A stretch of 57,458 nucleotides of DNA from a virus. Lineage: Duplodnaviria > Caudoviricetes. The stretch's first letter is position 1. Each line of letters starts with the position of its first letter. The notes under the pieces were generated by a model. That model was not told the DNA's origin. It saw only the letters and a list, made by a program, of their open reading frames with translations, and did not search any database. The DNA is taken from positions 1 to 57,458 of IMG/VR virus record IMGVR_UViG_3300047311_000444. One strand, given 5' to 3'. This document shows positions 261 to 39,196 of this stretch, in pieces. The position numbers and the translations under genes were made by a program.

Positions 261-782
261 ATGATCACAGCAGCCGACACGGCACCGACAAAACCATACC
301 CGAGACCCACCCAAGAGCAGAAAATAAAAGCTCGCGCCGCATACGTTCAAGGGAAGGGGTCCGCTCGCGTTGTTGCGGGTCTCTTCGGGCTCAATGCAGA
401 GACCGTGCAAGACTGGATCACGGATGAAGGATGGGTGGACATGCGAGCGGATTATGACAAGCGGCAACTTGAGAAGTTGCTCGCTCCCCCGACACCGGCG
501 CCAGCAATCCCGCAAGAGCAGAGCAGCGGAAACCGACAGGTGGACAGACTGTCTGGACAGATGCGTGCGATAGAAGAGCAGATGGAAGGAATGACGAACG
601 CCGATAGCCTTGCCAAGCTCGCAATGGCTCATTCAAAGCTCTTTGACGCATGGTGCGTACTCACTGGCACCCCTAGACCTGGGGTCCGCAAGGTCGCAAA
701 GCCGGGTCGTTCGCTCGCTCCTATCGTGGCGCCTACTGAGTCTACAGCGCAAGCGGTTGAATCACAGCCGCTTCCCGAATAA
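261..782 (+). CDS. Terminase small subunit-like HTH protein (allele A)
   Basis: N-terminal HTH (ARAAYVQG..VAGLFGLNAETVQDW..EGW), coiled coil, C-terminus nearly identical to 56783-57334; ATG 261 matches the MITAA start of the other copy. Confidence 0.6.
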   Translation: MITAADTAPTKPYPRPTQEQKIKARAAYVQGKGSARVVAGLFGLNAETVQDWITDEGWVDMRADYDKRQLEKLLAPPTPAPAIPQEQSSGNRQVDRLSGQMRAIEEQMEGMTNADSLAKLAMAHSKLFDAWCVLTGTPRPGVRKVAKPGRSLAPIVAPTESTAQAVESQPLPE

Positions 783-906
783 TGGCATCACAATGCTTAT
801 TATGTTTCAATCGGGCTTGCTCCTTTCGTAAGTGACTCCTAAGCATGCTTTTGCGCTGGTCTGGACCGTCACCGCGGGCCCAGGGCGGCACCCCCCGCGC
901 GGCGTG
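780..906. repeat. 127-bp exact repeat of window end (57332-57458)
   Basis: Direct comparison; identity stops at 779/57331. Confidence 0.97.
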
Positions 907-948
907 CCCGATCGTATATGACGCCCCCTCTTTTATCGGCAGTGCATT

Positions 949-1266
949 TTACAGCATTCTCTTGGGATTCAACCACTTAATGAACTGCCTTGCTGGACGG
1001 TGAAACCACAGTGCTTCGGGCATCTCGATCGGGACCCCGGCGATGTCGGCTCGGAAGTCGATCATTGCGCGCCAAACTTCGATTGGCATCCACTTGGGCT
1101 TCAACGGTTCAAGGCTCTCGTAGCAGACGTGTCCTATCCAGGCGTCGTCAGTTGGTGCCCAGTCTTTGAGAATCTCGCGATCGAAGTGCGGGGTTTGGTC
1201 GAGGAGGAAGTTGATGTACTCCGAGCAGTCGGGCTCCTCTTTCCTGCGTAAGTTGGGCTCTTTCAC
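949..1266 (-). CDS. Small protein containing a copy of the major capsid protein N-terminal segment
   Basis: FLLDQTPHFDREILKDWAPTDDAWIGHV vs MCP FLFDQSPHFDKDILKDWFPTDDAWIGHV; start uncertain (GTG 1266; ORF open to 1425). Confidence 0.65.
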   Translation of the reverse strand: MKEPNLRRKEEPDCSEYINFLLDQTPHFDREILKDWAPTDDAWIGHVCYESLEPLKPKWMPIEVWRAMIDFRADIAGVPIEMPEALWFHRPARQFIKWLNPKRML

Positions 1267-1302
1267 GTGAGTTACGTCGATTCCTGCAACCGTGTCCGGA
1301 TT

Positions 1303-1323
1303 TGTCCGGGACATGTCCGGGAC
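1303..1323 (-). repeat. Inverted exact 21-bp copy of the putative origin iteron pair at 8472-8492
   Basis: Reverse complement GTCCCGGACATGTCCCGGACA equals 8472-8492. Confidence 0.85.
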
Positions 1324-1329
1324 ATCCTC

Positions 1330-2145
1330 GTAGGTGGAGTTATACCCACGCGCGTTATAGATGCCGTGACAGGAGAGGGCCTTTCGGCGGGCTCCTGCTC
1401 CGCGCCCCATGGTGTTTACTGCCATGGGTGGGCGGACTGTCGGGTTTGACTATTGGTCGCGGCGCTGCGGGGACAGGCGTAAGGACAGCGGTAAATGCCG
1501 TCGACGCGGACCTCTTCGGACTTTGTTGTCGCAGGCCCATGCCCCCCTGCTCGGGGACGGCACGTTGACACATGGCTTGGGCTCAATCAGCGGCCCTACT
1601 GTGACCATGCGTTGGTTATCTGCGTCTGCACTGCTTCGTGCGGATAGCGGGGAAAGGGGTTGTTGTACTCGAGGATGAGCCTGAGCCCTGGTTGTGCTTT
1701 TAGGGGATACCCAGAGCGGCCCTCCCACCTGCGGGCAATTGAAGCGCCAACCGCACCGTGTACGCTCGAAGTGTGCGCCGGGATGGGTAGCTATTTCACT
1801 ACGGGTCCGCAGCGGAAAACGAGTCGATTGGTACCGTGGAGGCGCTTCAAATTGGCGGCACCCCTGATCGGCAGTCTCAGCACACGGGGACTGTCCAGGA
1901 GCCCCGTTCGTTTTGGACACGTGCTTAGCCGGGGATGCCAGAAGATCAGCAAGGGTCCCGCCGAACTGACGGACCAGGACGGGCATAAAACAGGACCCCC
2001 GTTCGGTTCCTCCGACGCCGGGGGTCCTGCCGCCAATGAACCGATCCGCTGCTGGATTCGTGGAAGGGAAGGCTCCAGCGGGCCTTGCGTCTGGTTTCCA
2101 CCCCAGATCAAACCGGCGCACGACCACCATAGTAATGCGCCGATC
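1330..2145 (-). ncRNA. Candidate large structured non-coding RNA (~815 nt)
   Basis: No convincing ORF; more than 12 nested helices, a GAAA tetraloop, a pseudoknot, G-U pairs mostly favouring the minus strand. Confidence 0.6.
1986..2029 (-). terminator. Possible intrinsic terminator (or one helix of the candidate ncRNA)
   Basis: 11-bp perfect stem 1991-2001/2019-2029 followed by only UUUUA on the minus strand. Confidence 0.35.
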
Positions 2146-2317
2146 ACACAGCCAACGAACAGGGATACACTCCTGATTTGCTGCGTGAAAAGGAAGCGCC
2201 GCGCGTTGTTGAAATCTTGGAACGATTTGCCCACCTTGAGCGACGCGCGGCGAAAATGTTACTGTCTGTTCCAGATTCAACGTGGCACTTGTCGCACACG
2301 TGCTCCGGGGTTGTCAA
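2144..2317 (-). CDS. Small hypothetical protein (CxxC)
   Basis: TTGA start/stop overlap with the upstream gene. Confidence 0.35.
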   Translation of the reverse strand: MTTPEHVCDKCHVESGTDSNIFAARRSRWANRSKISTTRGASFSRSKSGVYPCSLAV

Positions 2318-2532
2318 GTGGTTTTCGGCGGGACCTTGGAAAATCTCCGATCCAGGTCCTCCACGGTGATCGTCCGCTGGCGGCGCTTCCAGCCCTTCGA
2401 GTGCCGAAAATGCCAGTCGTTTCCGGGGTCTGGAACTTCCTTCTCCTGCCACGCAACAGTGACTTTGTTCTCGAAGGATGCGGAGCCCCTGATAATACGA
2501 TACCAGCGGACGATGCGGACGAGCTTGCTCAT
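2314..2532 (-). CDS. Hypothetical basic protein
   Basis: MSKLVRIV start 1 nt after the upstream stop. Confidence 0.55.
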   Translation of the reverse strand: MSKLVRIVRWYRIIRGSASFENKVTVAWQEKEVPDPGNDWHFRHSKGWKRRQRTITVEDLDRRFSKVPPKTT

Positions 2533-2533
2533 G

Positions 2534-2851
2534 TCATCGGCGCGGGTATCCCGGCTCACCGATCGGAGCAGTCGGAGCGGGCGGGACGAAATCCTGAGAG
2601 GGCGGCGCGGAGCCGACGCGGGCGCGTGGCTCGCGTAGTCCCGGCTCACTGGCGATGCAAGGTCCGTCGTCACGCTTCAGGCCCGGGTTGACGGCGCTGG
2701 CGAGAAACGACTTTTCGAGCGCTTGCGGGTTTTCCATGTAGCGGCGCAGCGCGTCCAGCAGATATTCCCGGCTCTCGAACACGACGGTTTGACAGCCCAC
2801 GTGACAGACGAATCCGTTCAACACGGGGATGATTTTTATTTCTCGGGTCAT
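2534..2851 (-). CDS. Hypothetical protein
   Basis: ATGA-coupled start MTREIKIIPVLNGFVCHVGCQ. Confidence 0.7.
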   Translation of the reverse strand: MTREIKIIPVLNGFVCHVGCQTVVFESREYLLDALRRYMENPQALEKSFLASAVNPGLKRDDGPCIASEPGLREPRARVGSAPPSQDFVPPAPTAPIGEPGYPRR

Positions 2852-3345
2852 GGGTCCTTTGGTTGTGGTTTTCCGAACAGATCGAAATAACTCTCGGGCG
2901 GACAAAGCTCATGCTGCGGGACCCAGAAGGCGGGGCGATTCTTGGCGTATGGAGAGCCCCAAAGCTCCGGTCGCTTCCCGTCGCGGGCGTACGTCCAACC
3001 CTTGATCACATACGTTCCGTTTTTCCCGCAGACCAGCCAAAAGATTCGGTCGTCAGGATCGGACGGGTGCAGGCGCAGAGCGTAATCATCCTTCGGTGCG
3101 GTGCGGCAATCCATGTCGCCCACGTCGGGACCCCGGAAAATGCCCTTGCCATTCCACGGCAGGCCCAGGAACTTCGACAGCGCCATTTCCCCCAGGATTC
3201 CCTCAATGTGAATTTGCCAGTCGTTGAGAGATTCATCACCGTGGGCGGGCTTGCGGTTCAGTTTGAGGTTCTCAATCTGCCGCGCGATACCCGCTAAGGC
3301 GCAAAGCTCGATCTCTTCGATGGGTAGGACGACGCGCTTGTTCAT
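2848..3345 (-). CDS. Phage hypothetical protein, possible PD-(D/E)XK-like fold
   Basis: EGILGEMAL...PDVG..DCRT pattern; ATGA coupling. Confidence 0.6.
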   Translation of the reverse strand: MNKRVVLPIEEIELCALAGIARQIENLKLNRKPAHGDESLNDWQIHIEGILGEMALSKFLGLPWNGKGIFRGPDVGDMDCRTAPKDDYALRLHPSDPDDRIFWLVCGKNGTYVIKGWTYARDGKRPELWGSPYAKNRPAFWVPQHELCPPESYFDLFGKPQPKDP

Positions 3346-3791
3346 TTCAATAGTGTTACATTGGGCCAACCGGCGTGTTTGTAAAGAGCCGACGCAATCA
3401 CGTCATACCACGCGACTCTTGCCACTCGTCGCACAGACGATTCAATAGCATCGACCAGGATTGATTTTCCCTGCCCGTTCGGGGGCATGTGTGCGCGATT
3501 GTTATCCGGAAAAAAGAGCACAATCAGGGTCCTTTCAACGGCGTCGAGTTGGTCCGGGGCGCAGGGAATAATAACCGCCCGATTCCACTTCATGTGATGG
3601 TGTGCGGTGACTCTGGAAATCACGTTCACCGATTGGCCGACATACACAAACTCAAACACTCCGGTATCTGCAAAATCCACCAGCACGTAAACTCCACAGA
3701 TGCGATCAACTCGCTTGATGACTGACGTAGTCCCGATGTCGACAACAGCGGGCAGGCTGAAGGGTAACGGAGATTCTTGGCGGACGCTCAT
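3342..3791 (-). CDS. GIY-YIG nuclease family protein
   Basis: GVYVL...YVGQS..VISRV..H...E..LI...P.NN motifs. Confidence 0.8.
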   Translation of the reverse strand: MSVRQESPLPFSLPAVVDIGTTSVIKRVDRICGVYVLVDFADTGVFEFVYVGQSVNVISRVTAHHHMKWNRAVIIPCAPDQLDAVERTLIVLFFPDNNRAHMPPNGQGKSILVDAIESSVRRVARVAWYDVIASALYKHAGWPNVTLLK

Positions 3792-4318: not shown

Positions 4319-4687
4319 TCAGTCCCTCGATTGAATCCCGCACAGTTTCCAGTTCTTGTGTCCCTGCTTGTTCATCCACGTCTCCACCTTGATCGCGCAG
4401 CGGACGATTTCTCCGGGAACGTCGGCAGCGTTCAACTCGTTGGTCGTGTCGCGCTGGCCCTTGTGGGGTCCCACACGCTGCGGCGTGGAGGGGATCATGT
4501 AAACGCTGTAGTGCAGGCGGGAATCAGCGCGAGCAAAGCCCGCTCCGTCGTGCCATGTCACATCAACCTGAATGCGCTGACGATCAATTTCAAGGACCCC
4601 CAAAACCTGCACATCGGTTGGCACGTTGCCGTTAAAAATGCGGACGTGATCACCACGCTTGAGCGCTTTGGCGTCAGAGATTTTCAC
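4319..4687 (-). CDS. Hypothetical protein (SH3/KOW-like N-terminus)
   Basis: GTGA coupling; LKRGDHVRI motif. Confidence 0.6.
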   Translation of the reverse strand: MKISDAKALKRGDHVRIFNGNVPTDVQVLGVLEIDRQRIQVDVTWHDGAGFARADSRLHYSVYMIPSTPQRVGPHKGQRDTTNELNAADVPGEIVRCAIKVETWMNKQGHKNWKLCGIQSRD

Positions 4688-5190
4688 TTGACCTTGTCCT
4701 CCCAAAATTCCCAGAGACCGTGCAGGATCGGGTGGAAGTTGTGCTGCATCATTTCCTCCTGCGCTTTCTCTTTGCTCCAGCCGTTGCATTGAATGCGATA
4801 CATGCCGACGACGAGCCCTGTCCGGTCCTCCCCGTGCTGGCAGTGGATGAAGATGTTTGTCATCGAAATTCCACCGTAGCGATTGAACACGAAGCCGGGT
4901 TGCAGGGACTCCAGCCCGATCTGCTGCCAGAAATTGATCGGCGCGCGGTAGACCGTCATGCCGATTTGCTCCGCGTAATTGTCGGAGCCCTCACGCTCCG
5001 TGTTGAGTTTGATCACCTTGGTTACGCCAAAGGATTTCAGGTAGTCCCATCCCTCCTTGCTCGGCTGGCCTCCACGCCAAACGCCTGGGCTCACCTTGTA
5101 AAAATTCGGGATTCCGAAACTTGTTGGCTTCGTCGCGCAGGACGTGGTGAGCAGCAGCGCCGCGCCGCCAATGATCTTCAGCAATTTCAT
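4684..5190 (-). CDS. Lipoprotein Cys-based (PTP/dual-specificity) phosphatase
   Basis: HCQHGEDRTG P-loop (CX5R), NFYKV..GVWRGGQP, lipobox-like LLTTSC after a hydrophobic leader. Confidence 0.85.
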   Translation of the reverse strand: MKLLKIIGGAALLLTTSCATKPTSFGIPNFYKVSPGVWRGGQPSKEGWDYLKSFGVTKVIKLNTEREGSDNYAEQIGMTVYRAPINFWQQIGLESLQPGFVFNRYGGISMTNIFIHCQHGEDRTGLVVGMYRIQCNGWSKEKAQEEMMQHNFHPILHGLWEFWEDKVK

Positions 5191-6724: not shown

Positions 6725-7197
6725 GGAAGCTTTTCGATTTCGTCGGCGTAATCGTTCCACTTCACACCAATCGTTGCGGCGAGCAAGCGTTCAACCCCCG
6801 TGGCGAAGCAATGCTGCCCATGGTATGGAGCGTGCGGGTCGTCTCCCGGCTCGTCCTCATTGCCCACGGCGCGATCCTTCTCAAACTCCATGTCGAATTT
6901 GTCCACAGTCACCTGATCAATACCATCGGACTTGCATAGCATGCACTCAACGAGTTCGTGGACCGCAATCAGCGCTTCCATTTTCCAGGACGGAAGCTTG
7001 CTGACGCGGATATTAAGCGTGACGTTGATCAACGGCAGGTGCTCGCGCCTGCACCCGGCGCACGTGACTGCTTCAACCCGTGGAGTGATGATGCTTTGAG
7101 AGCACTCCTTGCAAAAATAAGTGTAGTCGTAAAACCAGTCACCCACGGTTGCATACCTCTGGTCCTTGTGCTCGATCGTTTCGATGACGATTCTCAT
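6721..7197 (-). CDS. Putative zincin-like metalloprotein with inserted Zn ribbon
   Basis: QRYATVGDW...HELVE...EPGDDPHAPYHGQH..ATGVE; CKEC/CAGC insert. Confidence 0.55.
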   Translation of the reverse strand: MRIVIETIEHKDQRYATVGDWFYDYTYFCKECSQSIITPRVEAVTCAGCRREHLPLINVTLNIRVSKLPSWKMEALIAVHELVECMLCKSDGIDQVTVDKFDMEFEKDRAVGNEDEPGDDPHAPYHGQHCFATGVERLLAATIGVKWNDYADEIEKLP

Positions 7198-7580
7198 GAT
7201 CGCTTGTTCCCGTGTTTGTGCGGGCGGGTTTGGTTGAAAGCGTGTTTGGTGAGGATCGCATGCACAATGTCGATCTTCAACCGCTTCGACGTATCAAAGG
7301 CCCGGATGACGATGTCGGCAAGCTCCTCCTCCGCGCAGGTGAGAGCGTCAAGGCCAACTTCCCGCATCTTCCCCGCCTTGTCGCAGGGTTCATCGAAGGT
7401 CCCATTTCTCCACGCTTCATGAAACTCGCTGATTTCATCGTGCATGTTGTTCGACGTTTGCTCGATGAACGTATGCTTGGTCTGGCCCTTCGGGTGAAAT
7501 CCCTTGTTGACGGCGTTCCGGTGGATTGAAGCAACCAAGTCCTTCAGAAAACAGTGAGTCGTTAATTCGATTTCGGGCAT
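7194..7580 (-). CDS. MazG-like nucleotide pyrophosphohydrolase
   Basis: EISEFHEAWR...EEELADIVIRAFD...K.AFNQTRPHKHG. Confidence 0.8.
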   Translation of the reverse strand: MPEIELTTHCFLKDLVASIHRNAVNKGFHPKGQTKHTFIEQTSNNMHDEISEFHEAWRNGTFDEPCDKAGKMREVGLDALTCAEEELADIVIRAFDTSKRLKIDIVHAILTKHAFNQTRPHKHGNKRS

Positions 7581-8008: not shown

Positions 8009-8779
8009 ATGTTCGCCAAAGTTTTTGAGCAGATTCTTGATTCGTCGATAGCTTCCGACTGGCAAATCCGGCACGTATTCGAAGACTTCCTGAAGCTCGC
8101 CAGAAAGGTGGGCTCGGACTGGATCGTCGATATGACGCCGGACAGCATCTCTCGGCGAACCGGGGTCCCGCTGGACATTGTTGAGCGGGCGATCGCAAAC
8201 CTCGAAAGCCCAGACACGCAGAGCCGGACTCCAGATCACGACGGACGCAGGCTTATTCGCCTGGATGAACATCGGTCCTGGGGCTGGATTATCGTCAACT
8301 ACCAAAAATACAGGGAGATCGCTTCCAAGGAGATGGTTCGCATGTCGGAGGCTGAGCGGAAGAAGGAATACCGCAGCCGATCGACTCCCCTCTCCCCCTT
8401 TCCCCCTGTACCCCCTAACCCTTGTACCCCTGTACAGAGTACAGATACAGAAGCAGAGCGGTCCCGTGTTGGTCCCGGACATGTCCCGGACAGACCCTCA
8501 CTGAACAACATGGTTGAATACGGGAAGACCATAGGTCTATCTGTAACAGAATCAACGAAGTGCTTCGATTATTACCAGTCAAACGGCTGGAAGGTAGGAA
8601 GAAACCCGATGAAGGACTGGAAAGCCTCAATTCGTAACTGGTCCCGCAACGTCAATGCAACCACTCAAAAACATAATCCCCCGCGTTATGACAGAAATGC
8701 CACGACCGTCAACGACCCCGACAAGTGGGCAGCAGCCCGAGCCGCCAAAGAGGGAAGAGAAAACCTTCCAGGACTTTAA
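8009..8779 (+). CDS. Phage replication initiator (replisome organiser)
   Basis: MFAKVF..ILDSSI, wHTH, GW.IVNYQKYR; C-terminal FDYYQSNGWKVGRNPMKDWKASIRNW; followed by loader and DnaB. Confidence 0.8.
   Translation: MFAKVFEQILDSSIASDWQIRHVFEDFLKLARKVGSDWIVDMTPDSISRRTGVPLDIVERAIANLESPDTQSRTPDHDGRRLIRLDEHRSWGWIIVNYQKYREIASKEMVRMSEAERKKEYRSRSTPLSPFPPVPPNPCTPVQSTDTEAERSRVGPGHVPDRPSLNNMVEYGKTIGLSVTESTKCFDYYQSNGWKVGRNPMKDWKASIRNWSRNVNATTQKHNPPRYDRNATTVNDPDKWAAARAAKEGRENLPGL
8395..8495 (+). promoter_or_regulatory. Putative replication origin inside the initiator gene
   Basis: Tandem GTCCCGGACA repeats plus CCCCTGTA and TACAGA repeats in the linker, as in lambda O-type genes. Confidence 0.55.
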
Positions 8780-19604: not shown

Positions 19605-21635
19605 ATGGCCAAAGAAAAGGAAACGCCGACTTGGATTGACGGATTCACCCAACTTGACGCTGGGATGAATTCCGGAGTGGCCCCGCAGATTCTCCCGAGA
19701 AACCAAGCCGCGTTTGCAACCAACTGCACCTTCCGCGGGAACTTCGTCACCGATCGACCTCCTGTAAGGCAAGTCACCTTGGACTTCGGTGGAAATGCTT
19801 CCACCCAGCAGAATTTTGAAGACAAACTTTTTCAAGGCGCAACGTATTTTAACCCGGACACAGGAACGCAGGCATTGGTTGCGGCGATCGGTGGTCGCTT
19901 GTTCGATTGCTCGATTGAGGGAAACGTAGCCACTGTCGTTGACGCGACTGTTCCGGGTGATCCCAATCCTTCAACCGTAACACAGGCATGGCTCTGGCAA
20001 GCGGAGTCCTGGATCATCTGGAATGACGGGCAGAGCGTGCCGGTGTTTTACAATCGCGTGCAGACAGCCCGACGATCAAACTCTAACGGCTTCACGTACG
20101 GATTAACCACAAATGGAGGCTTCACTGCTCCCCCTGTAAATCAGTACGCCGTCGTCTTCTTCACTGGAGGCAACATGCCACCAATCGGCGGCACCGTTTT
20201 AATTGGCGGCGCTCAATATCAGTTCGGAGGATATGCCCTTTCCGTTGGAATGCCGAACCCCGCTGTGGGCGGAACCTTTCCCACGTTCAAAAATCTCACT
20301 GACATACCGGGAACGGTTTACGGCAATGGAGTCTCCGTAAAGAGCATCGGTGGAGGCGGCACCGAATTGCCAGTTGGACGCATGGGAGCGTACGGCATGG
20401 GTCGCAACTGGATTTCTTTGCCGGACGGGAAAAGCTTCCTCGGTGGAGACATTGTCGGCAGTAGCACCGGCACTGCTCAATTCAATTTTCGTGATGCGGT
20501 GCTCAATGTCGCCTCCAACCCATTTTTGGCCGCTGGTCAAACCTTTACCGTTCCGGGACAGAATCAAACGATCAACGCCATGTGCTTCGCCACGACGCTG
20601 GACGTGTCTCTTGGCCAAGGACCCCTTGAGGTTTACACCGCAAACACGGTCTTCAGTTGCATGTCTCCGGTGGATAATTTCACGTGGACAACGATCACGA
20701 ATCCGATCCTCACAGAATCACTGATCGGCGCTGGTGGGCTCGGGCAGAATTCCACGATCGCTGCGAGCGGAGACACTATCTCACGCTCCCTCGATGGAAT
20801 TCGATCCCTGATTCTTGCGCGCCGCGATTTCGACACGTGGGGCAATGTGCCAATCAGTGAGGAAATGCTTCGCGTGTTGCCGGATGACGCCGCCGCGCTG
20901 CTGCAATACAGCAGCGCTTTGGTCTTCGATAACCGGATGCTCATGACGTGCATCCCCACCACCGGAGACAGAGGTGTCTATCACCAGGGTTTGATCGCAC
21001 TCAACTTCAGTCCCGTGAGTAGTCTTCGCGGCAAGCAGCCCTCGATCTATGATGGACTTTGGACCGGCCTCAACATTCTTCAACTCGTCAAAGGACTCTT
21101 CCTTGGGGTCGAGCGCGCGTTTGCATTCACCTTTAACCAGACGACCAAGAAAATTGAACTCTGGGAAATCCTCCCCACCAGCAAAACGAACCACTTCGAC
21201 AATGACACGATTCCAATCACTTGGTCCTTCGAGTCTGCGTCACTGATGCGGCAGGTGAAGGGCAAGGGAGAATTCGAACTGTGCCGCCTGATCGACGGGG
21301 AGATTTACGTCTCCGACGTGATTGGTACCGTCAACTTTCAAGTGTTCTACCGACCCGATTATGACGATTGCTGGCACAAGTGGCATGAGTTCAGTGTATG
21401 TGCCAAAAACACAGAGCCGGGAGCACCGTTGCAATACCGGCCCCGCCTCGGACTTGGAACCCCTGACATTACTCAATGCGACCCCACAACCAACAAGCCG
21501 TTTGCTATTGGAAGATTCTTTGAGGTTCGCGTGCAGGTTTCGGGGCATTGCGTAATCAAGGGGATGTTGATTAAAGCGTCGAAAGAGGACGAGCAGGAGT
21601 TTGCTCCCCAAGTCTGCGACCCGATTTGCACATGA
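19605..21635 (+). CDS. Tail tube/nozzle (DNA stabilisation, P22 gp10/T7 gp12-like) protein
   Basis: GMNSG..P..LP.NQ....NCTF start, beta-rich 676 aa, position before adaptor and ejection genes. Confidence 0.6.
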   Translation: MAKEKETPTWIDGFTQLDAGMNSGVAPQILPRNQAAFATNCTFRGNFVTDRPPVRQVTLDFGGNASTQQNFEDKLFQGATYFNPDTGTQALVAAIGGRLFDCSIEGNVATVVDATVPGDPNPSTVTQAWLWQAESWIIWNDGQSVPVFYNRVQTARRSNSNGFTYGLTTNGGFTAPPVNQYAVVFFTGGNMPPIGGTVLIGGAQYQFGGYALSVGMPNPAVGGTFPTFKNLTDIPGTVYGNGVSVKSIGGGGTELPVGRMGAYGMGRNWISLPDGKSFLGGDIVGSSTGTAQFNFRDAVLNVASNPFLAAGQTFTVPGQNQTINAMCFATTLDVSLGQGPLEVYTANTVFSCMSPVDNFTWTTITNPILTESLIGAGGLGQNSTIAASGDTISRSLDGIRSLILARRDFDTWGNVPISEEMLRVLPDDAAALLQYSSALVFDNRMLMTCIPTTGDRGVYHQGLIALNFSPVSSLRGKQPSIYDGLWTGLNILQLVKGLFLGVERAFAFTFNQTTKKIELWEILPTSKTNHFDNDTIPITWSFESASLMRQVKGKGEFELCRLIDGEIYVSDVIGTVNFQVFYRPDYDDCWHKWHEFSVCAKNTEPGAPLQYRPRLGLGTPDITQCDPTTNKPFAIGRFFEVRVQVSGHCVIKGMLIKASKEDEQEFAPQVCDPICT

Positions 21636-23146
21636 GCAAATGCGATCCATGCAAAGTGATTTCGGAATGCCTCCAGTTCCCGCTGGTGTTCTACAATCTG
21701 AACGTGGGAAAGCACTACACCAATCCCACTCTCGGATTTCAAATCACGTGCCCCAACGGAAGTATTGTCACTCAGTACGTTCAGGCTGGGACCGTAAATT
21801 TCACACTGCCGTTTCCTCCAGGATTCACCGGAGATTATCCCCCGCTGGTGCTTGGCTGTGCCGCTGGTGGAAACATTGTCCGGAACATTCCGTCAGGCGC
21901 GACCCAGGATCAGATCGACGTGATTGTCAATGAGATGATCATCACTTGCGCCCGAGCGATCGCAGAACAGCAGGCCAGTTGCACAGCACCCAACCCCGCG
22001 TCCAATGATGTCGTCTATTTCAATCACCCGTGCCCCAGCGGAACTTTGACGCTGTCGGTGACTCCTCCTTCCTGGATCACTCTTGACTCAGCGAACAGCC
22101 GACTCGTTGGAGCGGCTGGCACGTTCACTTCAAGTTCAAAGTCGGCAGCAAACGAACTCGCCCAGGACGCGCTGAACGGCTACGGAAATCAGCAAATCGG
22201 TCTCGGCACTCTCTCTTGCTCGCTGCCGTGCCCCTCTCAGATTGGAACGATCGCCTCAGTTCAATCGGGAACGGAATATAGCTACACTCCGACCCACACG
22301 GCGGCTGTGCAGAGATTGGTGGAGGCGGACATCATTACTCCCAAATTGAACTTCATCAATACGGCTCTCGGCACTGTGATTGCGTCACCCGTGTTCAAAG
22401 GCGGGAGATTGGGCTGCTTCGCCGCGTCACAAAACCATTTTTTCCTGAACGACGCGAACACCGCCAACAACATCGGGGTGTACGACCAAAATGGCGGATT
22501 CGTGGCAACCGTGGCGTACCCAGATGCTCCCAGCGACCCGGTTTACAGTGCAGCGCAAGATCGAGTTTACGTCACAACTCTTCCAGGCTTCACCCATGTC
22601 CGCGGAGTCAACCCCACTACCAATGCCATTGTCAGCGACGACAACCTTGGGGCCAACTACGCAGCGGGGCCACAACTGTTCAACCTGAATGAACGACTGG
22701 TGTTCAAAGGATTTCTTTTTTTCGACGCCATGTTTTTCTTCGACATCCCCAGCATGGCCCTTGCCGGAAATGTTCCCATTCCCGGAGGATTCGCCGGTGG
22801 AGCGTGTTACGCCCCCAACGCGGGCAAATACCTCGTCGGCGCTTTCAACTCCGGAACATTCAACGCGGAGGTGTGGCAAATCAACTCGACGACGTTTGCC
22901 GTTGAGCATGTCTACACCCCCACGGACATAGGCGACGGCGTCTTCACCCTGGAGTACAATCCGGTGACGGGAAAGGTTGTGGGCAAGCAGGCGTTTTCAG
23001 GCCCGCTGCTGATCATTGACCCTTTGGCTCTGACGATCGTTTGTGAGATTCCGCAGGTGAGCGACATCAACGCAGTCATTGACGAATCGACCGGAAAGAT
23101 TTATACGGGAGATGACGGGGCTCAGCAAACCCTGATTTACCAATAG
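21632..23146 (+). CDS. Virion protein with Cys-rich N-terminus and C-terminal beta-propeller (putative receptor-binding)
   Basis: Repeated Y.P...K.Y.. blades (YSAAQDRVYV, YAPNAGKYLV, YNPVTGKVV, DESTGKIY). Confidence 0.55.
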   Translation: MSKCDPCKVISECLQFPLVFYNLNVGKHYTNPTLGFQITCPNGSIVTQYVQAGTVNFTLPFPPGFTGDYPPLVLGCAAGGNIVRNIPSGATQDQIDVIVNEMIITCARAIAEQQASCTAPNPASNDVVYFNHPCPSGTLTLSVTPPSWITLDSANSRLVGAAGTFTSSSKSAANELAQDALNGYGNQQIGLGTLSCSLPCPSQIGTIASVQSGTEYSYTPTHTAAVQRLVEADIITPKLNFINTALGTVIASPVFKGGRLGCFAASQNHFFLNDANTANNIGVYDQNGGFVATVAYPDAPSDPVYSAAQDRVYVTTLPGFTHVRGVNPTTNAIVSDDNLGANYAAGPQLFNLNERLVFKGFLFFDAMFFFDIPSMALAGNVPIPGGFAGGACYAPNAGKYLVGAFNSGTFNAEVWQINSTTFAVEHVYTPTDIGDGVFTLEYNPVTGKVVGKQAFSGPLLIIDPLALTIVCEIPQVSDINAVIDESTGKIYTGDDGAQQTLIYQ

Positions 23147-23147
23147 C

Positions 23148-24173
23148 ATGCTTACTTTTGGAGATTGCAAGGCGAGTCGGCAGATCATTTCTGCCGCTGC
23201 CGCGTGTCCAACGAGTGACGCCTTCCGGGACTACGTCAATCAGGGAACCGACATGCTCATGAAGCGTGGGAATTTCTGGGGAACGGTTCAACCCTTGCAA
23301 GTCTGCGTTTCAAATCAGTGCATCACGTGGAATCGGTACGTGGGAACGGTGCTCGCGACCAACGTGTGCCGCTCAGCGTCTCGTCCTCAAAATAACTGGA
23401 GCGCGTTCGTCCCGATTGGACCGATGGGGATTCGTGGAGACGGTTTCGGATTTGGCCACGGTGGTTGCACCGGCGATCTGGTCCTTGAGAATGTCGGCAC
23501 CAGTCCCGTGTTCAATCAGGTTGCTTGCTCGAAAGCCTTCTACGTTCGCGCCTACCCCTCCGTGCGTGCCGACGTGGGCAAGAAGATCAGGATTTTCGGG
23601 ATCGACAGCAACGGTCAAACCATTCTCACCAAGAACGCTGACGGGACATGGTCCGAAGGCGTTGATATTACGATCGCGATCGAGTTCGCCTCAACGCCGA
23701 TGCTGGTGGGGGAGATCACGCGAGTTATCAAGGAGCCCACTCAGGGCGTTGTGAGACTGTTCCAGTACGACCCCGTGGAGAACGTGCTTGTTGATTGCGC
23801 CGTTTACGATCCCTCTGAAACCAATCCGGATTACAGAGTCTCCCGCCTCCACGGATTTGTTGGACGCGGCTGTTGCAATTGCTCTGGAGTGAAAAGCATC
23901 AAGGCCCTTGTTAAGCTCCAATTCATCAAAGTCCAAGTGGACAACGATCTGGTGATTATCGACAACGAGGATGCGATTGCTTTGGCGATTCAGGCGATCA
24001 AAGCCGGTGAGTCCGGAAAAGTCGGCAAGTCTGCCGCCTTCGAAGCCTCTGCAATCCACGATCTCAATTTGCAGTTGAGGGACAAATTCCCCCTCGACCA
24101 AACTCCAATCAGTTACAATCCATTTGGCACGGCAATCCCCGCTGGTCGAGCTATGATCGGGAGGATTATTTAG
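23148..24173 (+). CDS. Putative head-tail adaptor protein
   Basis: Helical N- and C-termini (YVNQGTDMLMKRGNFWG; AIALAIQA) around a beta core; position. Confidence 0.5.
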   Translation: MLTFGDCKASRQIISAAAACPTSDAFRDYVNQGTDMLMKRGNFWGTVQPLQVCVSNQCITWNRYVGTVLATNVCRSASRPQNNWSAFVPIGPMGIRGDGFGFGHGGCTGDLVLENVGTSPVFNQVACSKAFYVRAYPSVRADVGKKIRIFGIDSNGQTILTKNADGTWSEGVDITIAIEFASTPMLVGEITRVIKEPTQGVVRLFQYDPVENVLVDCAVYDPSETNPDYRVSRLHGFVGRGCCNCSGVKSIKALVKLQFIKVQVDNDLVIIDNEDAIALAIQAIKAGESGKVGKSAAFEASAIHDLNLQLRDKFPLDQTPISYNPFGTAIPAGRAMIGRII

Positions 24174-24176
24174 CCT

Positions 24177-24800
24177 ATGGCAACCAACCCACTCTTCAAA
24201 TCAGTTGGGGGAGGAACATCAACCGGGACTTACAATCCTTCGCCCTCGCCGCGCACTGGACAAGGTGCTTATGGTTTGGTGCCTGGAGCCATTGGCCTGC
24301 CGAATCCATCGGCGGACCTCGCTGCCGTTTATCCGAATCTGACAGGGCAAAACGCACAACTGTCCAAGAATATCATGGGGGAACTCAGCGGCGAGCTTTC
24401 TCCTGAGACGATCAAAACAATTCAGGATCAAGCGGCTCGCTTCGGCGTCATGAGCGGCAGTCCTCTCAGCGGTTTTGCTGGAGCAGCGGGGCTGAAGAAT
24501 CTTGGGCTCTCGGTCGAACAGCAGCAAAAGGGGGGGCTTGCCGACTACCTCAATGCGATCACCGGAATTTCGAAGACGCAGACAGTTTCTCCGGAGCTAC
24601 AGACCGAGACCGCTCTGCAAAATTCAGTCTTCAATGCGGCTCCCGACCCCGCAATGGCGGCAGCGCAGCAGCAGAAGCTTCTGGACAAGTACCTCCAGGA
24701 AACCAAGGGTCCCGCTGGCGGCACAGTTCCTCAGGGGGTAACGAGGAGAAACATTTACCCCGGCAGTGCCGAATGGGGTGGTGCGCCATTTGATATTTGA
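24177..24800 (+). CDS. Putative DNA ejection (internal virion) protein
   Basis: G/A/Q-rich, first of three genes preceding a 1.5k-aa protein. Confidence 0.55.
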   Translation: MATNPLFKSVGGGTSTGTYNPSPSPRTGQGAYGLVPGAIGLPNPSADLAAVYPNLTGQNAQLSKNIMGELSGELSPETIKTIQDQAARFGVMSGSPLSGFAGAAGLKNLGLSVEQQQKGGLADYLNAITGISKTQTVSPELQTETALQNSVFNAAPDPAMAAAQQQKLLDKYLQETKGPAGGTVPQGVTRRNIYPGSAEWGGAPFDI

Positions 24801-24802
24801 TT

Positions 24803-25645
24803 ATGCCCTACGTACCGCCATGGCTCGACATCAAGCCCGCTGACTTCACGCAGGCTGCGGAGGCTGGCGCGAGGATTGGGACACAACTTTCCAGCATTGC
24901 GACAGACGCGCAGGTTGCCCGCGAGCGTATTGCTGCATCGGCTGCGGAAAATGCGTCACGTGTGGCCGCTGGAGCGGAAGAGGCCGCAGCACGCAGGGTG
25001 CAAGCAGCGCAGGAATCGGAGTCCGAGCGTCAATTGCGCCAGTGGGAAAACCAGCAGCGGATTCAGATGGAGCAACAACAACTCTCCTCCCAGGAAGGTC
25101 GCTCAGCCGCAGAGCTTGGGCAGAAGACTGCTTACGAAGGTGGATTGCTCAATCTCCGGAGCGCGGCCAACGACATCGCCCAGCAGCGCGCAGACATCGC
25201 TGCGGGCAAGGCTGGAGACACTGGCGGGAAAATGACTCCGCTGGACACTCACATGCTGAGTGACGCCCTGATTCGTCGACGGCAAGCGCAAGCGGCAATC
25301 ACGAAAGCCTCTGAGGATATTTCAACCGGAGGACCGAGTCGCGACATGCTCTCGAAGCTTCGAGCGGCTGAAGCAGACATTGACTCGCTGACGAAGAAAT
25401 ACGCGGCGCCTCCGACTGCTGGCACGGGAACGAATCCGGCGATGCAAGAGGGTGCGCGCGTCAGAAGCAAAACCACTGGCCAAATGGGAACGATCAAAAA
25501 CGGGGACGTGGTTTGGGACGCTGCTCCCGCGGCGCCTCCCCCCGGCGCTCTTTACTCTGGTCTTCCCGGAGGCCAGCCCGTATCGTCCGGGAATATGTTC
25601 ATGGGGGCGAATCTGCCCGCGCTGACGGAGCAGGGTGCCCAGTGA
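24803..25645 (+). CDS. Putative DNA ejection protein
   Basis: A/Q-rich coiled coil. Confidence 0.55.
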   Translation: MPYVPPWLDIKPADFTQAAEAGARIGTQLSSIATDAQVARERIAASAAENASRVAAGAEEAAARRVQAAQESESERQLRQWENQQRIQMEQQQLSSQEGRSAAELGQKTAYEGGLLNLRSAANDIAQQRADIAAGKAGDTGGKMTPLDTHMLSDALIRRRQAQAAITKASEDISTGGPSRDMLSKLRAAEADIDSLTKKYAAPPTAGTGTNPAMQEGARVRSKTTGQMGTIKNGDVVWDAAPAAPPPGALYSGLPGGQPVSSGNMFMGANLPALTEQGAQ

Positions 25646-30557: not shown

Positions 30558-31855
30558 TGGCAGAAGTAGCATCACCCCCAGCCGCTCCAGCGGCAGCCCC
30601 TCCGACTCCCCCGCCGTCGTCTCCCCCGAGTGCGCCGCCAGCGGCTCCCGCTGCCGCGCCGTCCGGAGAGGGCGAAGGTCCTGGATCATTTGACAAGTTC
30701 GACACTGCCTTTGAAGACCTCGGGCAAGACACTCCCCCGCCGTCAGGGACTCCCGCCCCGGTACGCACTCCGAAGGCACCGGCGAAGCCTGCCGCCACAC
30801 CCGCGCCAGCCAAGCCAGCCGGGACGACTCCTCCGGGAGAATTCGAAGAGGTTGAGGGAATCCAGGTCCCCCGTTTTAAAAAGGACAGCGAGTTTCGGGG
30901 TTGGGGTCTCGCGGGCTATAAAAAGGCCAAGCAGTTGGAGACCGATCTCAACACTCTCCGAGCACAGCACCAGCAGATGGAGCAGGAGCACCCGAAGACC
31001 AAACAGGAGCGTGATGCCCTCGCCGCGCGCTTGGCTGACATCGAAAAGAATTTCAACGAAACGTCCGAACAGATCAAGTACCTCAATTACGAGCGCTCCA
31101 GCGAATACAAGGACAAGTACGAAACGCCCTACCGCAAAGCAGCGTCCGCTGCGTACGAAGCCGTAAAGCAGTTAACAGTGACGGAACCCGACCCGACGCA
31201 GCCGCCGAATCAGGACGGAAGTCATCCAACTCGGGAGCGTCCTGCCACGGAAGCAGACTTCGACGAAATTTATCAACTTCCCCTTGGTCCCGCCGCGAAG
31301 CTCGCGAGCAAAAAGTTCGGCCCCGAACTCGTCGGCACGATGATGCAACACTGGCACAACATCCGGACGCTGGCCAAAGACGCAACCAACGCGCTGAAGG
31401 ACTGGAAAGAAAAGGCGTCACAGCGCGAGAAGGCGGAGTCGGACCAGAAGACCATACAAGAGGGCCAGATTCAGGAAGCGTGGACGACAGTGAACAAGCG
31501 CATGTCGGAAGACCCTCGCGGCGCGGACCTGTGGGCAGAGGTGAAGGACGACAAGGAAATCAACGAAGCGATCGGGCAGGGATTTGCTCTCGCCGACCGT
31601 CGTTTCTCCAACGACTACGCAAAAATGTCACAAATGGAGAAGATCGTTCTCGATGCTTCAATCCGTCACCGGGTCGCGGCCTTTTATCGTTTACGGGTCG
31701 AAAACCAGCGGCTCAAAGCAGAGCATGCCCAGGCTCTCAAGGACCTTGCCGAACTTCGAGGTAGTGGCCCCGGAGAGCCTGGGACTCCCGGAGGCGGAGA
31801 GCAACCCGCTGGAGAGTCCAAGGGCGCAATGGCTGAGTTCGATGAGAAAATGTGA
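30557..31855 (+). CDS. Capsid scaffolding protein (putative)
   Basis: P/A-rich N-terminus, long charged coiled coils, short C-terminal helix AMAEFDEKM. Confidence 0.65.
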   Translation: MAEVASPPAAPAAAPPTPPPSSPPSAPPAAPAAAPSGEGEGPGSFDKFDTAFEDLGQDTPPPSGTPAPVRTPKAPAKPAATPAPAKPAGTTPPGEFEEVEGIQVPRFKKDSEFRGWGLAGYKKAKQLETDLNTLRAQHQQMEQEHPKTKQERDALAARLADIEKNFNETSEQIKYLNYERSSEYKDKYETPYRKAASAAYEAVKQLTVTEPDPTQPPNQDGSHPTRERPATEADFDEIYQLPLGPAAKLASKKFGPELVGTMMQHWHNIRTLAKDATNALKDWKEKASQREKAESDQKTIQEGQIQEAWTTVNKRMSEDPRGADLWAEVKDDKEINEAIGQGFALADRRFSNDYAKMSQMEKIVLDASIRHRVAAFYRLRVENQRLKAEHAQALKDLAELRGSGPGEPGTPGGGEQPAGESKGAMAEFDEKM

Positions 31856-33315
31856 GGAACTGCTGGATCACACTCGGCGCGTACGGTGACTGCTGCAACA
31901 CGCTGCCGCTGGTCCTCCACGATTTCCACCTTGGCAATCGTCCCACGATGATGATCGCTCGGGAGTTTGCTGGTCTCCTTGACGGCGTCTCCTACTGCGA
32001 GCGGCTTGTCTACGAAGGGGATTACTCCCAATCCGCAAAGGCCGCTGACGAAGCTCAGGCCAGCGGAAAGTTCGACAACATTTACCTGTGCCAGTGCTAC
32101 GGCACGACCGTTGAACGAGCAACCGACTCGTACGCGAAAGAAGCGTGGAGGCTCGTCCAGCGTCTTCACCTGTGGGATCAGTTGCCGCTGGTGTTTGATC
32201 GAAGAGACAGGGAGCGGGAGAAGAGGCAAGTTGAAGAGTTGGAGAACGATCCAAAATATCGCCGCGCAAACCCCATAGTGCTGGTTTCTCGCTCCGGGAG
32301 GTCCTCCCCATTTCACGATTGGTCTATGCTGATCCTGGCCCTTGGCTCCTTGGTGGAGGACTTCAATATCGTGGACGTGTCCGACATGCGACTCCACAGG
32401 TTTTACGACATGCTTGGATTGATGGAGAAAGCCGTTGTTCTGGTCTCCACTGACAGCGGATTACTTCACCTTGCTCAAGCGATTCCTTCGCTTCCAGTCA
32501 TTGCCCTCACGACACACTCTCCCGATTCATGGCATGGGTCTCCACGTCGGGGCAGTCATGTGTTCAATTGCCGGTACAACGAATTTAGAGAGCGCCAGAA
32601 TGAGATTCCGAACGTGATCAGAAGAATAATGTCCGGCTCAAAGATCAACCGGATTGTTCACGTCTATTCCGATTTCGATCACCGCGCTGAGGATGCAGAG
32701 TTCCGGTTCAACGTGGCGCGCCTGTCGTGGAAGCGGGAGTACGGTCTAACTGATTGGCTCCCGACTCCCGTCCACGACAAGACGCTCAACCGAAACGCAA
32801 CCGTGGTGGGAGAGAAAAAGCCTGCCCCATTCTTGAAGGATATTTTGGAACGCGGCGCGGAGATCGCAGCCCCGGACGACATCATTCTTTTTACCAACGA
32901 CGACACGAACTTTGCGCCGAACTTCTCCGTGGATTTGAAGCAGTGTATGGCAAACCATGATGCCATTTGGGGCTCCAGGATGGAACTGAATTACATCAAG
33001 TCCCCTCCCAGCCGGGAGGAAATGTCCAGAGGCTACAAGCATTGCGGCGCCGACGTGTTTGCCTTTCGCAAATCATGGTGGACAAAGCATCGCGATCGGG
33101 TCCCGGACTTTCTTCTCTCGTTCGAATGCTGGGACCTGTCGTTGAGGACCCTGATAAATATCACTGGCGGCGCGGAGGCTGAAGGGCTATGCGCTCACCA
33201 GATTCATACCTCGCATTGGCACACGGCGGAGCACCGAGAGTGTACCGGAAACCTTTACAATCGCCACTTGTGCCAAAAATTCTTTTCGGATAACCGTATG
33301 GGATGGCCAGCATGA
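31852..33315 (+). CDS. Two-domain glycosyltransferase (GT9 heptosyltransferase-like + GT-A)
   Basis: LGAYGD...LP, VSTDSGLLHLAQA (GT9); ILFTNDD, GADVFAF, WD (GT-A). Confidence 0.8.
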   Translation: MRNCWITLGAYGDCCNTLPLVLHDFHLGNRPTMMIAREFAGLLDGVSYCERLVYEGDYSQSAKAADEAQASGKFDNIYLCQCYGTTVERATDSYAKEAWRLVQRLHLWDQLPLVFDRRDREREKRQVEELENDPKYRRANPIVLVSRSGRSSPFHDWSMLILALGSLVEDFNIVDVSDMRLHRFYDMLGLMEKAVVLVSTDSGLLHLAQAIPSLPVIALTTHSPDSWHGSPRRGSHVFNCRYNEFRERQNEIPNVIRRIMSGSKINRIVHVYSDFDHRAEDAEFRFNVARLSWKREYGLTDWLPTPVHDKTLNRNATVVGEKKPAPFLKDILERGAEIAAPDDIILFTNDDTNFAPNFSVDLKQCMANHDAIWGSRMELNYIKSPPSREEMSRGYKHCGADVFAFRKSWWTKHRDRVPDFLLSFECWDLSLRTLINITGGAEAEGLCAHQIHTSHWHTAEHRECTGNLYNRHLCQKFFSDNRMGWPA

Positions 33316-36907: not shown

Positions 36908-37210
36908 TCATTTCTGCGGCTCGCGACCTTCGAGGACCAAATGGTGATAGTGGCACAGCCAAACGACTTCGAGGGGCTTCGTGTAATCAATGTGGTGCGG
37001 CTCAGTCTTTGGATTGCCGCAGGCTTCGCATATTCCCCGTAGAATCTTGCCCCTTTTGAGATAAACGTGCAGGTACGATCGAGCGTTTGAGCGGAGACGT
37101 TGCTCTGTCGTAAGTGGATGATTTGGCCTCCAGTTACGCATATATTTTGCGTGGCAGTTCCAGCAGTTTCTCTGTCCCGGACGTGCCTCATTTCCGCAAG
37201 CGCATGTCAT
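36908..37210 (-). CDS. HNH-type/Zn-finger endonuclease-like protein
   Basis: CEACG...PHHIDYTKPLEVVWLCHYHH; inserted antisense among late genes. Confidence 0.75.
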   Translation of the reverse strand: MTCACGNEARPGQRNCWNCHAKYMRNWRPNHPLTTEQRLRSNARSYLHVYLKRGKILRGICEACGNPKTEPHHIDYTKPLEVVWLCHYHHLVLEGREPQK

Positions 37211-37253
37211 CACTCCACGCAAACACCTTCTTTTCCGATTGTCGAGAAAGTTG

Positions 37254-37419: not shown

Positions 37420-38751
37420 ATGGCAACCTGGAATTGCGCCGCATTTTTCGACTTTCTCTTTGATCAAAGTCCCCACTTCGACAAGGACATCCTCAAGGAT
37501 TGGTTTCCCACAGATGACGCCTGGATCGGCCACGTCGCGACCATCCCGTGGGATTCTTTCACCGGCACAACGCATGTGTACGATCACGTGCATGTTGGCG
37601 CCCCCGACCTGAGCCAAGCCTGGGACACCTTCGATACCCAGAGCACGCAATGCGTGACGAACGCTTGCACGCCGAAAGCAATCTCGGTGGGCTGGGGATC
37701 GACGCGGAAGACCTACAGCCGCGAGCGCAAGCGCTACGAGACGAATGTTCTCTGCTTCGACCAGATGAACACGCGCGCCAAGGCCAAGCAGCAACTCGCG
37801 GAGATCATCCGGGGCATCAAGGACCTCACGAAGATGATCTGGAGCGATTACATTCGCCGCAACTCCCTGATGCAGTCGCCCACGCTTTACATCGCTGGCG
37901 CGGCTCGCAACACCGTGGCGATCACTCCTGCGATGTTCACGGGCGGCATGGCGACGATCGTCCTCGGCAGCGACGGGCTGTTGCCGACGAGCACGCTGAC
38001 GATCCAGTATCTCCAGCGGTTTTACGAACTGCTCCAGGGCAACGGTTACTTCAAGTCGAAGTACGTTCCCAATGGCGTGTTCAAACTGATCACCGACCCG
38101 ATCTCGACGCAGCAGTTGATCGAGATGAACCCGGCGCTCGTCTCCAACTTCAAGTTCACCGACTTCACCCGAGGCGGCGAACTGTTCAAGTACGGCATGA
38201 GCAAGGGCATCGGAAACTTCGGCATCGCCTGGGATTTGTTTCCGGCGCGCTTCTATCCCAAAAATGACGGACACGGAACGCTCGTCCGTGTGTGGCCCTA
38301 TCTGAATCAGGCCGCAACGATCGGTATCAAGCCGGTCTTCAATCAAAAGTGGGTGGACGCGCCGATTCAATACAGCCCGATCTGGCACCCGGAAGCGATG
38401 AAGCGCGCCGTGCCGGAACTCACTCCGGTTCATCCGGAAATGCCCTTCCTCACCCGCGACCTGGGCGGCAAGTGGAACTTCACGGGACCCGACAGCGACA
38501 CGATCGTTGTCACGGACCCGACGACCGGCCAAACCTGCGTGATCGACAATAAGGCGCGCAATCAGGGGCTCTGGTGGGCGGACTTCGAATCCGGTTTCAA
38601 GTTCGAGTATCCGGAATGGACCGCTCCGATCCTCCACCTGCGCGAACCCGGCTGCGTCGTGGACAATCCGGTCTGCACCACGGCACCGGCTTACGTCGTC
38701 CAGGACTACTCGGACGTGAATCCGGTCTGCACCGAACTGGGACCGTTCTAA
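37420..38751 (+). CDS. Major capsid protein (putative)
   Basis: 443 aa, strong high-expression codon bias, own promoter/leader and 3' hairpin, downstream of scaffold. Confidence 0.75.
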   Translation: MATWNCAAFFDFLFDQSPHFDKDILKDWFPTDDAWIGHVATIPWDSFTGTTHVYDHVHVGAPDLSQAWDTFDTQSTQCVTNACTPKAISVGWGSTRKTYSRERKRYETNVLCFDQMNTRAKAKQQLAEIIRGIKDLTKMIWSDYIRRNSLMQSPTLYIAGAARNTVAITPAMFTGGMATIVLGSDGLLPTSTLTIQYLQRFYELLQGNGYFKSKYVPNGVFKLITDPISTQQLIEMNPALVSNFKFTDFTRGGELFKYGMSKGIGNFGIAWDLFPARFYPKNDGHGTLVRVWPYLNQAATIGIKPVFNQKWVDAPIQYSPIWHPEAMKRAVPELTPVHPEMPFLTRDLGGKWNFTGPDSDTIVVTDPTTGQTCVIDNKARNQGLWWADFESGFKFEYPEWTAPILHLREPGCVVDNPVCTTAPAYVVQDYSDVNPVCTELGPF

Positions 38752-39193: not shown

Positions 39194-39196
39194 TTT

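Follow-up and report, generated by a model that had tools for sequence, protein, structure and literature searches.

A small accessory gene of an uncultured soil phage carries a maintained copy of the N-terminal arm of the major capsid protein

The small ORF and its neighbourhood

The DNA analysed here, which is referred to throughout as the window, is the whole of a 57,458-bp IMG/VR virus record, an uncultured soil phage with a completeness rated at 96%. On its minus strand lies a small open reading frame (ORF), one part of which repeats the N-terminal arm (N-arm) of the major capsid protein (MCP) specified elsewhere in the window (Table 1). The longest minus-strand frame, from an ATG at 1425 to position 949, would specify 158 amino acids, and in that numbering the arm copy occupies residues 66-100. 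The 105-amino acid reading, which we adopt, is discussed with the control region.

Table 1. Features of the small ORF, the capsid protein gene and the second arm-bearing gene. Positions are those of the window except where a locus is named.
Feature	Position	Strand	Remarks
Small ORF	949..1266	-	105 aa plus stop; GTG start at 1266
MCP N-arm copy	1126..1230	-	35 codons; residues 13-47 of the 105-aa protein, corresponding to MCP residues 5-39
C-terminal domain	952..1125	-	58 aa; no relation to MCP
Swappable cassette	940..1288		about 350 bp; about 330 bp of unrelated sequence in G002
Tandem palindrome GTCCCGGACATGTCCCGGACA	1303..1323	-	upstream cassette edge, 37 nt before GTG 1266
Major capsid protein gene (MCP)	37420..38751	+	443 aa; HK97 fold by model
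MCP N-arm segment	37432..37536	+	residues 5-39; paralogue of the ORF arm
P0139	L025:10001-10393 (G005)		130 aa

The part of the protein that follows the arm contains the motifs WMPxEVW, IDFRxDIAGxPI and KWLNPKR, and ends in a basic tail. An AlphaFold2 model of the ORF computed from the single sequence is helical at low confidence (pLDDT 46), and these C-terminal 58 residues are probably a novel Trp-rich, helical domain. Neither Pfam nor PHROG had a match for the ORF or for the two related proteins P0138 and P0139 described below; the ESM Atlas had no usable match for the ORF, and tblastn against phage isolates matched neither the ORF nor the MCP (50,697 phage records in the case of the MCP). 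An assembly artefact was ruled out, since the exact protein is found on 22 contigs and the stretch occurs in 24 runs; none of these 24 is an RNA run.

The minus-strand block in which the ORF lies also contains a gene for a tyrosine/dual-specificity phosphatase-like protein (4684-5190) and one for a MazG-type pyrophosphatase-like protein (7194-7580), which fits the accessory operon to which an initial annotation, made by a model from the letters of the sequence, had assigned it. Proteins resembling DUF1804/phrog_4151 DNA-binding proteins are encoded near opposite ends of the record (87-782 and 56783-57334, both on the plus strand); they may be paralogues, or a sign of the point at which the contig was opened.

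The capsid protein

The MCP matched no Pfam or PHROG family at E ≤ 1, except for a sub-threshold match to DUF1731. A word-index search returned 152 homologues at E ≤ 0.001, none of them named and mostly of about 440 amino acids, many being located on contigs of 50-59 kb. From 120 of the 152 we picked 51, spread over the identity range and with preference for long contigs, which together with the query make up the alignment of 52 sequences used throughout. The AlphaFold2 model derived from this alignment (pLDDT 77, pTM 0.77) displays the long spine helix and the strands of the HK97 fold. Foldseek comparison of the model with the PDB gave 257 matches at E ≤ 0.001, those listed all being phage capsids, with the capsid of N4 as the best [8e-11; 9e99_A]. 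On this predicted structure the 443-amino acid protein is an HK97-fold MCP, recognised by fold only, as the initial annotation had supposed when it named the capsid protein as the partner of the ORF.

Residues 1-39 of the MCP are without secondary structure in the model and precede its first strand (residues 40-44); the segment shared with the ORF is therefore the N-arm. Its residues 5-39 are acidic, with seven Asp. The similarity between the two proteins stops exactly where the folded body of the MCP begins, and the small protein, the alignment of which is limited to its residues 13-47, is without the folded P and A domains.

No gene for a scaffolding protein or a prohead protease was identified within the window, and no recognisable portal, protease or scaffold gene adjoins the MCP gene. 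Small ORFs that follow the MCP gene (38816-39583) and the block at 19605-25645 are candidates for assembly partners. Directly upstream of it, and divergent, is a gene for an endonuclease (36908-37402, minus strand) [phrog_2340; 5e-11] with a Cys/His-rich, HNH-like pattern. Weak glycosyltransferase-like matches were obtained in 31852-33315, 35440-36137 and 36134-36907 [GT9, 1e-4; GT2-like, 6e-4], between a repeat-rich 606-amino acid fibre-like protein and the MCP gene. PDB sequence searches with three neighbouring large proteins gave no match. Among 185,579 species genomes the sole match to the MCP family, at 48% identity and with one copy of the arm, was on L047, a phage-sized contig of 54,852 bp binned with a Candidatus Binatia MAG, and hints weakly at the host.

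Comparison of the two arms

BLASTP aligned the ORF with the MCP over 35 residues without a gap, 24 of them identical and 31 similar [pair E 4e-17]. The core of the copy, FLLDQTPHFDREILKDWAPTDDAWIGHV, is encoded at 1126-1209 on the minus strand and is identical to MCP residues 12-39 at 23 of 28 positions; this match had been reported in the initial annotation, which placed it at about 1127-1216, and it is confirmed here. These two are the only copies of the arm in the record. Outside the 35 codons no alignment is found, and in the next 35 codons beyond the arm 26 of 105 nucleotides are identical, in agreement with the earlier statement that the flanks are unrelated to the MCP.

At 12 of the 23 identical residues of the core the two genes use different codons. 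A comparison of synonymous and nonsynonymous change against the MCP segment, the check suggested when the copy was first noticed, gave by the method of Nei and Gojobori a saturated pS of 0.95-0.98 and a pN of 0.12-0.16 (0.98 and 0.16, respectively, over the 35 arm codons), although a saturated pS alone is no proof of selection, since a fragment from a diverged MCP lineage would look alike. All 14 arm columns which are at least 90% conserved in the 52 MCPs are kept in the ORF copy, and none of the 11 differences between the ORF and its own MCP falls on them (hypergeometric P = 8e-4). The best match of the ORF arm among the 52 MCPs is 27/35, compared with 24/35 for the resident protein; since other MCPs are no more distant than its own, nothing points to co-evolution of the copy with the capsid of the phage itself. 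Judged by these comparisons, the N-terminal third of the ORF product is an ancient paralogue of the MCP N-arm.

Antisense control of the MCP mRNA was considered and ruled out, both copies being sense. The idea that the copy is a silent cassette from which the MCP gene is converted was likewise ruled out, as 72 of 105 nucleotides are identical and there is no long identical run.

Homologues and population variants

The 105-amino acid reading (GTG 1266) was searched with HMMER against 1.84 billion representative proteins, and 12 matches were obtained at E ≤ 0.001. The best [2.5e-23] is P0138, also of 105 amino acids, which is 52-54% identical over residues 12-104 and possesses both the arm and the C-terminal domain with its WMPxEVW, IDFRxDIAGxPI and KWLNPKR motifs. 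When the C-terminal domain alone is compared, 26 of 50 residues are identical [2e-15]. P0138 starts MKTESC, which puts the Cys of the arm at residue 6, the same position as in the MCP. An intact P0138 at 52% identity shows that the arm and the C-terminal domain make up an old, maintained gene under purifying selection, and not a recent fragment.

The 90%-identity cluster to which the window ORF belongs, one of the two that form the family, comprises 13 distinct sequences, found on a total of 47 contigs. In 12 of these sequences the arm is the same, and the C-terminal domain accounts for every replacement (K111N, I115L, R125H and A129S) as well as for an alternative tail. P0133, the 13th, is a 54-amino acid product with a frameshift upstream of GTG 1266; this is the sole frameshift, and no frameshifted or truncated cassette ORF was seen among the 13 variants. 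The contigs of four runs, which are too fragmentary for a dN/dS estimate, yielded one variant piece with one synonymous and two changed codons.

P0138 is encoded on six contigs of Logan assemblies, of which the longest has 9,037 bp. Neither the genome context of P0138 nor further members of the family were found in the viral, metagenome or genome contigs searched. A word-index search for short proteins carrying the MCP arm found none, and was insensitive, since it also missed the known positive P0003. Among the other HMMER matches, P0083, P0147 and P0148 are full-length MCPs. P0140, P0141 and P0143 match the MCP over 35-75 residues before departing from it, and were set aside as probable frameshifted or truncated MCP calls; P0142 and P0144 are spurious, being repeat proteins with summed weak matches. 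P0145 and P0146, on contigs of 1251 and 1078 bp, were considered as a second stand-alone family and rejected, as both are probably MCPs from a divergent clade, truncated at the 3' end; the last residues of P0145, APDMTKGWNVFD, resemble MCP residues 61-72.

A cassette absent from related phages

In G002, a 44.8-kb record whose MCP is 100% identical to that of the window, the flanks of the cassette are 98-100% identical to those of the window, and between them a different sequence encodes an Arg-rich ORF (L010:1501-1803). The comparison of the two thus presents a discrete, ORF-sized unit exchanged between conserved flanks. A third variant of the cassette is represented by P0005 and P0137. The products of the alternative cassettes are small, very Arg-rich (MKMTRKRLRR...) and without a family match; since those of this slot (P0004, P0005 and P0137) are without the arm, it is not a site reserved for combining an arm with a payload. 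One soil run shows a lower contig depth inside the cassette than in its flanks, and one contig skips 960-1248 by a joint (959 to 1249) of uncertain origin.

The ORF is absent from all 12 related records, which were searched with the 158-amino acid frame (G001-G004), the MCP (G005) or the 105-amino acid ORF (G006-G011 and G012) as query. Eleven of the 12 have the arm in their MCP only, and G005 also has P0139. Since G002 does without the ORF and its MCP is 100% identical, the ORF is not needed to build the capsid. The region is mosaic as a whole, since the flanking genes at 87-782 and 2848-3369 are also missing from G001, G003 and G004. These comparisons of related genomes show the ORF to be an accessory gene on a mobile, dispensable cassette.

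The initial annotation had held the conservation of the arm to be at the protein level, and P0138, together with the constancy of the arm among the variants, upholds this. It had also proposed that relatives lacking the ORF, or showing its decay, would mark a captured gene fragment. The gene is indeed missing from the 12 related records, which shows it to be dispensable and cassette-borne but not to be a decaying fragment; no decayed or frameshifted cassette ORF was seen.

Within the window a stretch of about 1.1 kb (approximately 1430-2530), 93-99% identical to G002, has no credible ORF, and positions 1680-1938 and 2524-2822, absent from G002, point to further small indel cassettes. Rfam had no match in window positions 600-3000.

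Start codon and candidate control element

The upstream side of the cassette adjoins 46 codons that G002 has at 100% identity and that are read into three different ORFs. Variants in this stretch include V3L, Y23N, N42F (two adjacent base changes) and the frameshift of P0133, and one contig has several small indels in it. We infer that the 46-codon stretch is non-coding and that translation starts at GTG 1266; a start near the arm is also indicated by P0138, which begins five residues before the arm Cys.

The 21-nt tandem palindrome at the upstream edge of the cassette has one other exact copy in the window, at 8472-8492 on the plus strand, with no match expected by chance. That copy is located 19 nt before the ATG (8511) of a replication-type gene, and both copies are oriented alike relative to the downstream gene. 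The palindrome is a candidate for a shared operator or promoter element. A simple consensus scan found no sigma-70-type promoter at the upstream edge of the cassette, and downstream of the ORF there is no clear terminator, the fold being no better than that of shuffled sequences (z = -0.4). The octamer TCCGGACA, expected 2.4 times, is present 11 times.

A second arm-bearing protein

G005 is a complete phage of 55,865 bp with terminal repeats, and its MCP is 47% identical to that of the window. Its P0139 opens with 44 unrelated residues, continues with a copy of MCP residues 2-65 and closes with a further 25 unrelated residues. The copy is identical to the G005 MCP at 38 of 61 positions (pS 0.95, pN 0.24) and has in common with it the lineage-specific PNDCSLY and IGHF. 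The gene, which overlaps the stop codon of its upstream neighbour and the start codon of its downstream one, lies inside a block of large genes, and the ORF directly downstream of it is the orthologue of window 23148-24173 (40% identity, E 4e-79). The flanks of the copy are unrelated to the C-terminal domain of the window ORF. On these sequence relationships P0139 is a second, independently built arm-bearing protein in a related phage. Its N-terminus, MKRRDFFKFLVGA, resembles a twin-arginine export motif, which is odd within a block of large phage genes.

The arm is thus found with two different bodies, that of P0002 and P0138 and that of P0139, and is preceded by 12 residues in the window ORF and by 44 in P0139. 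The majority residues in the MCPs are F14 (44/51), D23 (39/52) and F29 (46/52); all three stand-alone arms replace F14 (L/C/L), D23 (E/E/E) and F29 (A/A/Y), a signature drawn from three sequences only, two of which share ancestry. With a maintained gene and a second example, the term "capsid-arm mimic" of the initial annotation is a fair structural description.

Proposed role and alternatives

We propose that, as the capsid assembles, the small protein docks through its arm onto the partner of the MCP arm, a reading which we favour but hold tentatively, judging it somewhat more likely to be wrong than right. In P22 the scaffolding protein binds the acidic N-arm of the coat protein (PMC9965877), and in 80alpha it likewise binds the coat N-arm (PMC5644958); in these two phages the arm is the scaffold site in the procapsid and later reaches into neighbouring subunits (PMC9965877, PMC5644958). 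T4 loads diverse internal proteins by way of a conserved capsid-targeting sequence (PMC3012670). By analogy, the arm of the ORF would be a docking peptide mimicking that of the MCP, and would bind the partner of the latter on the inner face of the assembling procapsid, the candidates being the scaffolding protein and the surface with which a neighbouring MCP subunit receives the arm. Docking would bring the C-terminal domain into or onto the capsid, and the loss of two conserved Phe (F14 and F29) would keep the small protein from being an element of the lattice. Every binding step here, and any packaging of the protein, is an inference. The docking proposal is favoured by the constraint on the copy, which resembles that on a working arm since the 14 conserved columns are kept and pS is saturated; by the position of the arm Cys in P0138, which suggests that position matters; by P0138 and the population variants, which mark the ORF as a gene and not as debris; by P0139, which indicates that stand-alone arms recur; and by the replacements of F14, D23 and F29 common to the three stand-alone arms. 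The location of the ORF in the accessory minus-strand block, away from the MCP gene, counts against it. So do the armless alternative cassettes of the slot, where the T4 parallel would lead one to expect arms joined to other payloads; G002, with an identical MCP and no such gene; the failure to identify a scaffold or prohead-protease gene; the small size of the family; the poor specific fit of the arm to its own MCP; and the narrow, three-sequence basis of the F14/D23/F29 signature. Prediction of a complex between MCP residues 40-443 and the 105-amino acid protein scored 0.00, which, from a run without controls, is no verdict.

The same arm could be aimed at the host rather than at the capsid. 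CapRel and Lit/Gol are instances of immunity triggered by MCPs, and anti-defence genes tend to sit in hypervariable accessory regions. A free arm might bind a host sensor of the MCP arm and block it, or soak it up early in infection, and we regard such an anti-defence decoy, the first suggestion of the initial annotation, as unlikely though well worth keeping in mind. The gene does occupy a hypervariable, dispensable cassette of an accessory block, and MCPs are established triggers of bacterial immunity, as reported for Avs7 and Dsr1 (bioRxiv 10.64898/2026.01.04.697583); the arm, moreover, keeps the conserved epitope with F14 and F29 altered, as a non-activating competitor might. However, the sensors described in that preprint read the folded MCP through extended interfaces and not an arm peptide, and one would expect a sensor to be activated, not silenced, by a free trigger epitope. 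A decoy also leaves unexplained both the conserved 58-amino acid C-terminal domain and P0139, which is located inside a block of large, late-type genes, and no precedent for a capsid decoy was found in the literature searched. If instead the arm competed with the arms of the MCP for the scaffold or for contacts with neighbouring subunits, the small protein would inhibit or regulate assembly, the other two functions suggested in the initial annotation, either poisoning that of co-infecting relatives (exclusion) or delaying that of the phage itself. Having kept the residues conserved throughout the family, and not being specially matched to its own MCP, it could engage the assembly machinery of any relative, and the changes at F14 and F29 are what a chain-terminating subunit might show. 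There is a parallel in CpmB of SaPI1, which competes with the 80alpha scaffold at the coat N-arm and so redirects assembly (PMC5644958). Yet a family-invariant target would include the MCP of the phage itself, for which no self-immunity feature is apparent, and the conserved C-terminal domain is again left without an explanation; we give this reading a slender chance.

The opposite view, that the protein has no function and is a by-product of illegitimate recombination, the open frame of a captured MCP fragment being incidental, draws on the closest relatives, which are without the ORF, on the recombinational activity of the slot, and on the lower depth in one soil run and the contig that skips most of the cassette; the codon differences, too, could partly stem from capture out of an unsampled MCP lineage. 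We think it very improbable. P0138 retains the arm and the C-terminal domain in an intact frame at 52% identity, none of the 13 variants has a broken cassette ORF, no close donor is present among the 52 MCPs (best 27/35), and P0139 repeats the pattern relative to the MCP of its own lineage. The probability not taken up by docking and these three alternatives falls to functions that we have not thought of. A broader statement, which we put forward as an outside chance, is that the family has at least twice turned its own capsid N-arm into a stand-alone mimic, which keeps the family-invariant residues, has lost the two conserved Phe and would thereby compete for the partner of the arm without being built into the shell; in its boldest form that partner is a host sensor.

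Relation to known systems

The T4 capsid-targeting sequence is about 10 residues long; it is no paralogue of the MCP and is removed by the prohead protease, whereas the ORF carries a 35-residue copy of the MCP arm. In other respects the T4 internal proteins (IPI-III and Alt) are similar to the ORF product, being small, diverse and dispensable, with a variable payload, and they are directed to the assembling head by a short conserved peptide at their N-terminus (PMC3012670). CpmB of SaPI1 is a small protein that intervenes in assembly by imitating one side of the coat-scaffold interface, of which the coat N-arm is the centre (PMC5644958), as the ORF arm would; it is encoded by a satellite that parasitises the phage and imitates the C-terminus of the scaffold, whereas the ORF is encoded by the phage and imitates the coat side. 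In this likeness the coat arm is what is imitated, and a scaffold contact in the present phage is assumed from P22 and 80alpha.

T4 gp24 is a paralogue of gp23. As here, an MCP duplicate has been retained in the same genome under selection; paralogues of the gp24 type, however, keep the whole HK97 fold and are subunits of the lattice, whereas the ORF has the arm only, joined to an unrelated domain. The roles of gp24 and gp23 are treated in PMC3012670. The ORF also resembles a moron in that the cassette is an ORF-sized unit between near-identical flanks with a candidate regulatory element upstream. Moron-type cassettes are small units in phage genomes, consisting of an ORF flanked by a promoter and a stem-loop. 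In encapsulins, which are cellular compartments, a short terminal cargo-loading peptide docks cargo inside an HK97-fold shell; these peptides are usually C-terminal and do not come from the shell protein itself.

The literature searched contained no example of a free-standing protein made from an MCP N-arm, and the ORF appears to be a new form of mimicry or reuse of an assembly interface, differing from its nearest analogues, CpmB, the T4 targeting sequence and gp24. The N-arm of HK97-fold proteins has been known as an element that binds scaffold and links subunits, not as a portable module. Taken together, the data suggest that phages may be able to put part of their shell protein to a second use, either as an address tag or as a competitor. 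Should the arm serve to direct proteins to the capsid, it would offer a natural loading tag, defined by sequence, for an N4-like shell; should it compete for the scaffold or for a host sensor, it would represent a new class of mimic, and were the partner an arm-detecting host sensor, this would be the first case of an anti-defence protein derived from part of its own trigger. The replacements at F14, D23 and F29 offer concrete positions at which these roles may be probed.
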